The notes beneath the pieces were generated by a model. That model did not search any database, had not been told where the DNA came from, and worked only from the letters and a program-made list of their open reading frames with translations. A DNA stretch of 64,000 nucleotides from Perna viridis (lineage: Eukaryota), in the NCBI GenBank assembly GCA_037379345.1, contig CM074512.1, forward strand, positions 46,831,597 to 46,895,596. The letters are read 5' to 3'. Of this stretch, positions 23,571-25,476 are shown piece after piece. The translations under genes were made by a program, and so were the position numbers. Position 1 is the stretch's first letter, and each line of letters opens with the position of its first letter.

Positions 23571-24682
23571 TTATTTTTTTTGTGCAATACAAGAAGAATA
23601 AGTAGTGTAACTGACCTGAGAAATGCTTGCTAGGGAGTATTTACCTACAAAAAGATATATATGAGGTGTATGCACCAAAACGTCAAAACACTGACAGCAC
23701 AACAGAGAGAACATGTCGCACAATACACAGAAACTAAGCGTTCGCGCACGCGCACAATCACACTAGCACACTCTCTTACACACACATATCCATGCAAACT
23801 AAAAACGAACATTACGAATCCCACAAAATTAGGTTGGCAGTTCTTGCTTTTTGTAAGACACTCACAGCCCTGCTCGTTAAAGGACATGTTCAGTGAAAAA
23901 ATCAATTTCAATAAAAGTTATCAGTTACCTTCAAATACCGGTACATGTATTTAGGAAAAAAAATCGAATGCGAATGACCTTGCTTCAATACTAAGTGTTC
24001 AGGTGAATTAACTTGAACACAACGATGTCATTTATTTGACCGATTCAGCCCATGTCTCTCTAAAAGAAATGCCGAAGAAAATTAATTTGTTTTGAATGCC
24101 ATGATTTCTAACAGTGTGACAATCCTGTTAACTTGTTTTACTTAAAATAAATACTATTCATCTACTAAACATGGTATGTACCACACAAACTTTGAAAAAG
24201 TGTTTTTTTTCTTTAAAGTATTCTATTTTTACCGTTTATGTTTCCAGTGTCATTTCGTAATTTTGTTTGTATGTTTGTCTCTTGCTTACTATTTGTCTGA
24301 TGTTATCCTCATGAACCAATAATTTTGATTGATCACTGTGCTTCAGTTCATTTCACTATGGTTTAAGACATGAACTTTACTAAAACAAAGAATCCTAAAG
24401 GATACTACTATTGATAATCTAAATATATAATTGTTACTTACATATAATTTGGAAGCATCTTCTATCCTCTATCTACATGTATATTTACTAAGAATGTTGT
24501 TAATTAGTGTAGAGGTAATCAAGGGAGAGACTTACACAAGTGGAAGCTATGACTAGTTCTTTTAGATGTGCTCGTTGAGGGGAGTAATAAATACATTTAT
24601 AAGATCATAAGAGTATAAGTGATTAGAAGTAGTTGTCGATCATTACCCACTATGATCAATAATCAGATCTCTTTCTGATTCT

Positions 24683-25200
24683 GCCCCGTGCAGGTCCGGG
24701 TGTTAAAAGAATAAGCCTGCAGCAGCGCTAAGCTTGTCGTAAAAGGCGACTAAATAGTACTCAGATCCCTAGCCGGGGGCTAGGGCGCTCTTCCCACAGA
24801 GCAACTGGGATGTGTGCCCCAGGTGGTGGAATGGGGTACCCCTATCGTGTTACATGCTGGGGTTGTCAGGCTGTAATACAGAAAACCTGACCGCAAACCA
24901 TAGTGGTGCACCGTGTTGGGAAAGATGCCACGTTCCTCGCACGTGAAAGAACCCTACTGTGGTATTCTCCCGGAGTAGGAACCATAGGGCTCCGCAACAG
25001 GAAGCTAAATTGCCCGACCCTACCAAACTCTCCCTATTTCCAGTGGCAATCAAAATTTGTTGACCCCATTGTCCTTGTGTCCCATCCCTTTTTCATTTCA
25101 TTATCATTTCATGTTCATTTTATCATCAATTTCATGTTCATCGTCTGAATATAGCTGAATATTGCTGCTCGGACGTTAAACCCCAACAAACAAAACCAAA
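24683..25200 (+). mobile_element. Non-autonomous retroposon (SINE-like) with 12-bp target-site duplication
   Basis: CTTTCTGATTCT at 24671-24682 and 25201-25212. GC-rich, hairpin-rich body ending ...gacgttaaaccccaacaaacaaaaccaaa (CAAA-type tail). No meaningful ORF. Confidence 0.85.
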
Positions 25201-25476
25201 CTTTCTGATTCTTCACAAATTTAACGTTCGTATTTGTTGTGTCTTTTCACCAACGATGACATCAACGGTTTGGGTATAAATGCAATTTGGAGTCGGAACG
25301 ATAACTTTATTATAGCGCCTCCATACTTCCCTTGTTCAACGTGTCATAGATATCCTTTCCTTTTTCGTCTATCCTGGACTCAACATTTTAAGAGCAACTC
25401 GGCGGGTGTTTAAAAACATGTAATTTTGTTTATAATATGACAAAAAATGGAATAATCAGTTGTTTGGAAAAAGTAA

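Follow-up and report, generated by a model that had tools for sequence, protein, structure and literature searches.

The SINE copy in the window

The window, a 64,000-nt stretch of the Perna viridis genome, holds on its forward strand a 518-nt SINE copy of the LP type (24683–25200), bracketed by a 12-bp target-site duplication (TSD), CTTTCTGATTCT, whose 5' copy (24671–24682) and 3' copy (25201–25212) were found by repeat comparison to be 100% identical. An earlier note on this DNA had reported an insert of this length with a perfect 12-bp TSD, which is borne out. Its description of the insertion as young is partly right: the perfect TSD agrees with it, but the copy departs from the majority of 82 family copies by 15 substitutions and one deletion (~97% identical, against a family median of 96%).

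No tRNA was detected in the window (ARAGORN), and the Pol III B-box (GTTCRA) is absent from the window copy and from the family majority, so the absence of both a tRNA head and a B-box, as first described, holds; the SINE has no ORF of more than 85 codons. Three hairpins that had also been described are all found in the sequence. That at 24736–24750 belongs to the conserved head discussed below. The second, at 24767–24785, has 8 bp (z −0.86) and is family-specific, being absent from the other head families inspected, and the third, at 24865–24891 in the body of the element, has a z of −2.24 in the window copy, is without cross-family support, and includes two positions at which the window copy differs from the family majority. 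Further downstream, the supposed molluscan SINE core at 24939–24954 is a 16-nt motif that by eye resembles part of the Nin domain, as represented by Lsa_Nin_1 in supplement S9 of PMC4758252; the resemblance to Nin-SINE sequence stands, but nothing beyond those 16 nt was matched to the Nin-DC/Deu central domain. A T5 tract at 25089–25093, with T4 at 25118–25121, is a possible Pol III terminator, and is a weak argument against Pol III because the LP-SINE paper (PMC4758252) notes read-through of T tracts when C comes next. The tail (25148–25200), delimited from family copies, comprises an AATATA hexamer, a conserved LINE-type end and a (CAAA)n repeat. At 25306–25398, ~100 nt past the insertion, a depth peak marks a piece of another high-copy repeat.

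A SINE family with a sharp 5' end

The SINE is a non-tRNA family with at least 7,595 head-bearing copies in the 723-Mb host genome, this being the number of exact head 21-mers; exact tail 21-mers number 10,724, and a pseudoknot pattern gave 6,816 matches, as against none in reversed controls. A similarity search of the same genome returned 4,889 candidates, and among the 40 that were scored the full-length copies, the window's own excepted, are 95–96% identical. No other head-bearing family was met in this genome among the matches inspected (30 of 139 by one pattern, 11 of 11 by another), all of which are the window's SINE.

A TSD of at least 9 nt flanks 63 of 82 distinct full copies, a set chosen for heads intact from position 3 onwards; in 39 of the 63 it is 12–13 bp long, and the tails are (CAAA)n or (CAAT)n. 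TSDs of 12–13 bp together with a (CAAA)n tail point to target-primed reverse transcription of the LINE type. Relative to G24683, the TSD abuts in 39 cases, overlaps by 1–2 nt in ten, stops 1 nt short in eight and stops 3–11 nt short in six, so that 57 of the 63 lie within 2 nt of this base, and the 5' ends of genomic copies coincide near 24683 as had been anticipated. The TSDs adjoin 0–2 nt upstream of stem S1 of the predicted pseudoknot, without an extra leader, placing the shared 5' end (G1, 24683) 6 nt upstream of its 1-nt loop. When copies were instead picked by their tails (n=30), 19 extended to position 1–4, three of them at one shared insertion site, and 11 were truncated or deleted. 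Loose ends with unrelated flanks also pile up at 24683 in all four sequencing runs, where the contigs report the presence of the family and not transcript starts or expression.

LINE-derived SINE parts and partners are known from other systems (PMC5786205, PMC11481361), the present fold not being described in the accessible portions of those papers. No partner LINE turned up for the tail of this SINE. A single LINE family was inspected (12 of 113 matches) and ends in a different tail, and one variant-tail pattern gave no matches. Linked variants at SINE positions 274–446 divide the 82 copies into two subfamilies of ~50 and ~30, the first 250 nt being uniform. The SINE also occurs in head-to-tail arrays, with one repeated spacer between units (L602:1–900) or at 504-nt spacing (host genome G000, C1:9835985–9837517).

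Predicted fold of the head

The head is predicted to be a two-domain motif of ~80 nt, in which an H-type pseudoknot is followed by a hairpin with an internal loop. Stem S1 (24685–24688/24697–24700) encloses a single U (U24689) and the 5' strand of stem S2 (24690–24696), which pairs over 7 bp with the 3' strand at 24714–24720. The original proposal of the S1 stem with a loop pairing to 24715–24721 can be found in the sequence, but S2 is better drawn in the register given here, with U24689 as a 1-nt loop. A 1-nt loop spanning a stem of 6–7 bp is standard pseudoknot geometry. Among the families the layout comprises an S1 of 3–5 bp, one U and a 7-bp S2 that is bulged in some, with no inter-stem loop; the long loop measures 7–67 nt among 20 representatives and ends in AGAAUA (24708–24713 in the window), a strand that is invariant in an 11-sequence alignment (A3) and is predicted to lie in the S1 minor groove. 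S1 pairing is 100% over the three pairs counted, one of which switches from G-C to C-G.

Domain 2 (24724–24761) is formed by a further stem overlooked in the earlier note, P3 (24724–24730/24755–24761), an internal loop, and P4 (24736–24740/24746–24750) with its AARAG loop and a following UAA. P3 has at least 4 bp in 14 of 20 representatives, as opposed to 116 of 380 swapped controls, and is weak in three of six viral loci. The 5-bp P4 hairpin is invariant across sequences, its pairing is predicted, and it served as the search anchor for collecting heads; no stem variants occurred among the matches listed with relaxed viral patterns, where nine of 219 anchors passed, comprising one known copy and eight chance-like ones. 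Two of the differences between the window copy and the majority break head pairs, a private G>A at 24714 disrupting the S2 end pair and a G>A at 24759 weakening P3.

By folding energy the 80-nt head does not stand out from shuffles (z 0.11 for the window copy, −1.44 for an intact copy; pseudoknots are outside the energy model), so the case for structure is made by covariation. Alignment A3 contains four non-viral and seven viral sequences with 8-nt loops, in which all seven S2 pairs are changed on both sides and 98.7–99.4% of cells are paired, a percentage inflated by the choice of rows after they had passed the descriptor. The covariation score of 0.599 compares with 0.177 ± 0.032 in shuffles, none of 500 reaching it, and slid-partner controls score 0.06–0.11 with pairing down to 31–57%; the covariation on which the pseudoknot proposal depended is thus present. 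The viral rows were first found by the hairpin pattern alone, and in the seven viral copies 98% of S2 cells pair, which is equalled in 5 of 20,000 permutations, approximately the identity-permutation rate. Tandem copies within one viral contig (L222) differ at three S2 pairs, all three of which are still paired.

A 17-nt pattern gave at least 122 metagenome stretches and nine viral ones. The descriptor was passed by 62 of 85 own-genome anchors, 44 of 123 from metagenomes and 7 of 10 from viruses, with a false rate of 0.4–0.7% in shuffles, or ~2% when AGAATA and the 3' strand were retained; an earlier, looser descriptor was ~5% false, and the tightened version was used. Decayed copies, bulged loops and families without the pseudoknot make up the 79 metagenome heads that fail. 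Among 15 GTDB matches, ten are without the motif and five have all or most of it.

Relation to published elements

Matetovici et al. 2016 (PMC4758252) reported that LP-SINEs resemble, over their first ~70 bp, the 5' ends of three LINEs, two of them Nimb and one RTE, and proposed this head as a promoter, citing Pr77 as a parallel. Like the LP-SINE or 'Nimb-17 homology' head of the pectinoid MESC SINEs in that paper, the head of the window SINE is non-tRNA and ~70–80 nt long, and by eye against the scallop 'Nimb-17 homology' rows it is homologous to the ~70-bp Nimb-17/I-3/RTE-9 5' domain; the scallop head (Fig. S2) shares with it the C-run, TGCAGGT, GGG, AGAA, CCTGC and TCGTAARAGGCGACTAA blocks. 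As in the published LP-SINEs, there is no tRNA or 5S head and there are no Pol III boxes, TSDs are variable (63 of 82 copies with at least 9 nt), a 3' tandem-repeat tail is preceded by the AATATA hexamer (section 10 of the same paper), and a partial Nin-like motif is present. At 518 bp, the window SINE is twice as long as the LP-SINEs listed there (255–256 bp). Sequence likeness therefore places the window SINE within this already described kind, with an apparently LINE-type head, and the same head stands upstream of ORF1 and an endonuclease ORF2 in L334. The idea of a chimeric retroposon with a non-tRNA, LINE-type head is supported, SINE type and head being already in print; the parts of the 2016 paper available propose a promoter and do not describe the fold, its covariation or viral copies, and the word 'pseudoknot' does not appear in the paper.

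Several other heads show how the module is combined. In four loci (L131, L122, L150 and L078) a tRNA-like stretch, recognised by eye and lacking an exact B-box, follows the head. Scallop MESC SINEs have the same arrangement, in which the head was added ahead of an older one. Retroposon-type heads in GTDB prokaryotic bins (L332, L334, L322, L326) are probably eukaryotic contamination; they include the 5' end of a LINE (L334) and a short element that ends in a long trinucleotide tail (L332). One metagenome repeat (L097:401–502) has two tandem heads which, if they represent a family, argue against efficient cleavage before each head.

The motif in viruses

The motif lies on the sense strand in six small viral contigs, five of them distinct, as L247 and L316 have the same motif. 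It begins 6, 10, 10, 23, 76 and 102 nt past the stop codon of the last ORF and lies 86–183 nt from the contig end; in L222 it is tandem, the second copy running off the end of the contig. Pfam identifies an RdRP in three of the contigs (L313, L315 and L317). The other three resemble RNA viruses by their capsid alone, with Peptidase_A21 in L247 and L316 and an S-domain coat in L222. One further copy (L312:7952–8028) is intergenic, between two same-strand genes, in a 212-kb DNA virus whose record includes genes for NAD-dependent ligase, Bro-N and MSV199.

A model built from 14 non-viral heads gave true viral copies 39–69 bits, compared with 15–24 bits for hairpin-only matches, the E-values being rough; L314/L318 and L320, which have the hairpin only, fell in the lower range and were discarded as chance. 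A full motif (45 bits) also occurs at L324:97–183, close to the end of a Planctomycetaceae MAG contig of 599 kb and upstream of an aminotransferase-V ORF, and is either a bacterial copy or a chimeric contig end.

A candidate nuclease block at the 5' end

The head motif very probably acts as RNA: a DNA-only role cannot explain its conservation, because in small viruses that carry RNA-virus genes it sits just past the final stop codon. The preferred reading of what it does is more tentative, namely that the predicted fold sets and protects the 5' end of the element RNA, most likely by stalling a 5'-3' exoribonuclease in the manner of an xrRNA. It starts from what is observed: thousands of TSD-flanked copies with a single 5' end, compensatory S2 changes across repeat families and viruses, and a motif directly past the last stop codon of small viruses. 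Copies would be transcribed by read-through or from a start of their own, Xrn1/Xrn2 would trim the transcript to ~6 nt before the 1-nt loop and so produce unit-length RNA, and a LINE reverse transcriptase would prime on the (CAAA)n tail and copy this RNA to its trimmed end. In viruses the same block would give a short 3' subgenomic RNA, as with known xrRNAs. As a kind, xrRNAs block Xrn1 unaided by proteins, with a ring of ~15 nt encircling the 5' end.

Both in the window family and in four other repeat groups the common sequence has its start 6 nt upstream of the loop U; the hairpin in those groups lies 48–107 nt further on (a fifth group, of three, is ambiguous). Because this offset is fixed while the distance to the hairpin varies, the 5' end appears tied to the pseudoknot, as a nuclease footprint or a cut; the 6-nt offset may also come from shared descent among groups A–D. 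The elements start with a purine, which one depending on the family, and in this they resemble both Pol II starts and HDV ribozymes; a cap-derived first G was set aside, as one family starts with A. Against a nuclease block, flush TSDs are also expected from HDV-type cleavage or a fixed start site, and the Xrn1 stop would fall at or inside S1.

Known xrRNAs are pseudoknot-dependent, lie in 3' UTRs and can occur in tandem (PMC8374639, PMC12397905, PMC10321173), and some can stop Xrn1 inside a predicted stem (PMC8374639, PMC12397905). Xrn1 is not stalled by simple frameshift pseudoknots (PMC10321173). A block would therefore require domain 2 to brace the fold, and one speculation is that the loop of this domain docks on the invariant C-G pairs of S1. 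Like xrRNA classes 1–3 and coremin, as described in the available parts of these papers, the motif is compact, is built on a conserved pseudoknot near the putatively protected 5' end, stands at the start of 3' UTRs and is sometimes tandem. Unlike them, it is without a three-way junction, a P1-P2-L2B layout or the coremin sequence (a coremin 20-mer is absent), it has an extra conserved hairpin domain, and it is found at retroposon 5' ends; the secondary structures of class 1, 2, 3 and coremin xrRNAs are not seen in it, with no Rfam match and a layout that differs from the published descriptions. The head could therefore be, though we hold this no more firmly than the nuclease block itself, an undescribed class of nuclease-blocking RNA that is exchanged between animal retroposons and unrelated RNA viruses and makes LINE and SINE 5' ends with neither a promoter nor a cut.

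A sequence-conserved RNA motif near the 3' end of unrelated virus families, with an unsettled function, has a precedent in s2m (PMC3197151, in the part available); the present motif has another sequence and fold, with no Rfam match, and serves retroposons as a 5' module as well. The literature covered was found to describe neither the fold nor its occurrence in viruses, most subscription papers lying outside that coverage, so that the SINE is of a known kind, with an RNA motif common to viruses that is apparently undescribed. The formation of a precise 5' end is unsettled for many LINE clades, and in 2016 the conserved head common to LP-SINEs and to some Nimb and RTE LINEs was taken no further than a candidate promoter; a covarying fold that is also present in viral 3' UTRs makes this a bench question that 80 nt of RNA could answer. 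The existence of xrRNAs in eukaryotic genomes has been posed as an open question (PMC8374639, section 7), and a nuclease block, if true, would supply a cellular xrRNA and a third route to non-LTR 5' ends besides internal promoters and ribozymes. If the head instead cleaves, it would be a new ribozyme class, and on either outcome it would constitute an RNA family new to Rfam 15 and a functional module common to transposons and viruses.

Alternative explanations

The head combines a variable stem with a loop and an internal loop that do not vary, an arrangement typical of protein-binding sites; in viruses the motif always occupies a UTR, and in L334 it precedes ORF1. It might accordingly bind a host factor involved in translation, tailing or stability, serving viruses as a 3' enhancer and LINEs as a cap-independent or ribosome-proximity module, which the SINE would have retained as a means of reaching the LINE reverse transcriptase. 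We think this unlikely, as such binding alone does not explain the fixed 6-nt distance from the element end to the pseudoknot loop, viral 5' ends showed no sequence that consistently complements this loop, and the SINE lacks an ORF above the 85-codon size given earlier. The published LP-SINE proposal, which makes the head an internal Pol II promoter and gives the RNA fold a secondary place in 5' end formation, is in keeping with a purine at +1, the missing B-box, internal T-tracts and AATATA before the tail (PMC4758252), and Pr77 unites promoter and RNA function in 77 nt (PMC3383444). It gives no account, however, of compensatory pairing or of conservation in viruses with RdRP genes, and the spacing from start to conserved hairpin varies by ~60 nt; as the source of the 5' end we regard a promoter as quite improbable, although one may coexist with an RNA-level role by analogy with Pr77. 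Least credible is the view that host retroposon RNA gave rise to the viral copies, as passengers or assembly chimeras, which would make them uninformative on function. The apparent eukaryotic contamination of prokaryotic bins with the motif (L332, L334) lends it some colour, but S2 is particular to each virus and fully paired in all of them, the stretches inspected show neither a SINE nor a LINE body beside the viral motif, position and strand are alike in all six small contigs, and the tandem copies have diverged and yet kept their pairs.

The alternative with the strongest claim, doubtful as we hold it to be, is that the head belongs to a class of self-cleaving ribozymes not yet described and, by cutting immediately upstream of G1, releases the element from read-through transcripts, like the HDV-like ribozymes in R2, RTE and L1Tc. 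The flush 5' junctions would suit it, as would the invariant, non-covarying residues of domain 2, which moreover echo L3 and J4/2 of an HDV-like fold at a LINE 5' end in the same genome (L593:860–880 against window 24726–24746), with 16 of 21 ungapped identities, a level reached in 4 of 300 shuffles in a post hoc comparison, and GACUAA before the closing strand in both. A search for the HDV nested double pseudoknot (P1, P2, P3, L3, P1.1, J4/2) gave no solutions in 14 head stretches, while both controls (L593, L597) passed and the descriptor found a solution in 2 of 40 shuffles. Rfam 15, applied to the window region and ten other loci (E up to 10 or 5), gave weak matches only, far below gathering scores, in what is a weak test given that it missed the HDV-like control too. 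For hammerhead, twister, twister-sister, pistol and hatchet there was no Rfam match and the core motifs are absent, so the earlier note's failure to fit the head to canonical HDV, hammerhead, twister or pistol is upheld. One loose pistol pattern match in the heads is without pistol topology. The pistol ribozyme has a 5' hairpin whose loop pairs downstream, and an A-rich linker, and in both respects the head is like its consensus; the head is unlike it in having neither a P2 between linker and pseudoknot strand nor the conserved GCG after it. Ribozymes are established in non-LTR elements, and the HDV-like examples Pr77 and L1TcRz resemble the head in being a short module at the exact 5' end, common to differing LINEs and their non-autonomous partners (PMC3383444, PMC5786205, in the parts available). 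Their nested double pseudoknot is lacking in the head, which has a single H-type pseudoknot and then a separate hairpin domain. The viruses weigh on both sides: active ribozymes are known in the UTRs of linear toti- and tombus-like viruses, exceptionally 3', but are reported mostly in 5' UTRs (PMC13725137, as far as available), and a cut at the position of the element 5' end, whose nucleotide is not conserved among the viral copies, would take off the final 86–183 nt of the viral contigs. Because the motif stands in viral 3' UTRs without a conserved nucleotide at the would-be cut site, a nuclease block is at least as likely as a ribozyme.

The HDV-like fold used as a control is itself an observation about this genome. 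An intact 6.06-kb LINE family, with an ORF1 of ~490 aa, an ORF2 of 1247 aa and copies 97–99% alike, begins with a complete HDV-like fold unseen by Rfam (L593:847–1010 and L597:901–1060; C5:41397846 and C8:23537700 of the host genome). Domain 2 of the SINE head may have descended from an HDV-like core of this kind, the likeness in L3 and J4/2 being short, post hoc and weak.
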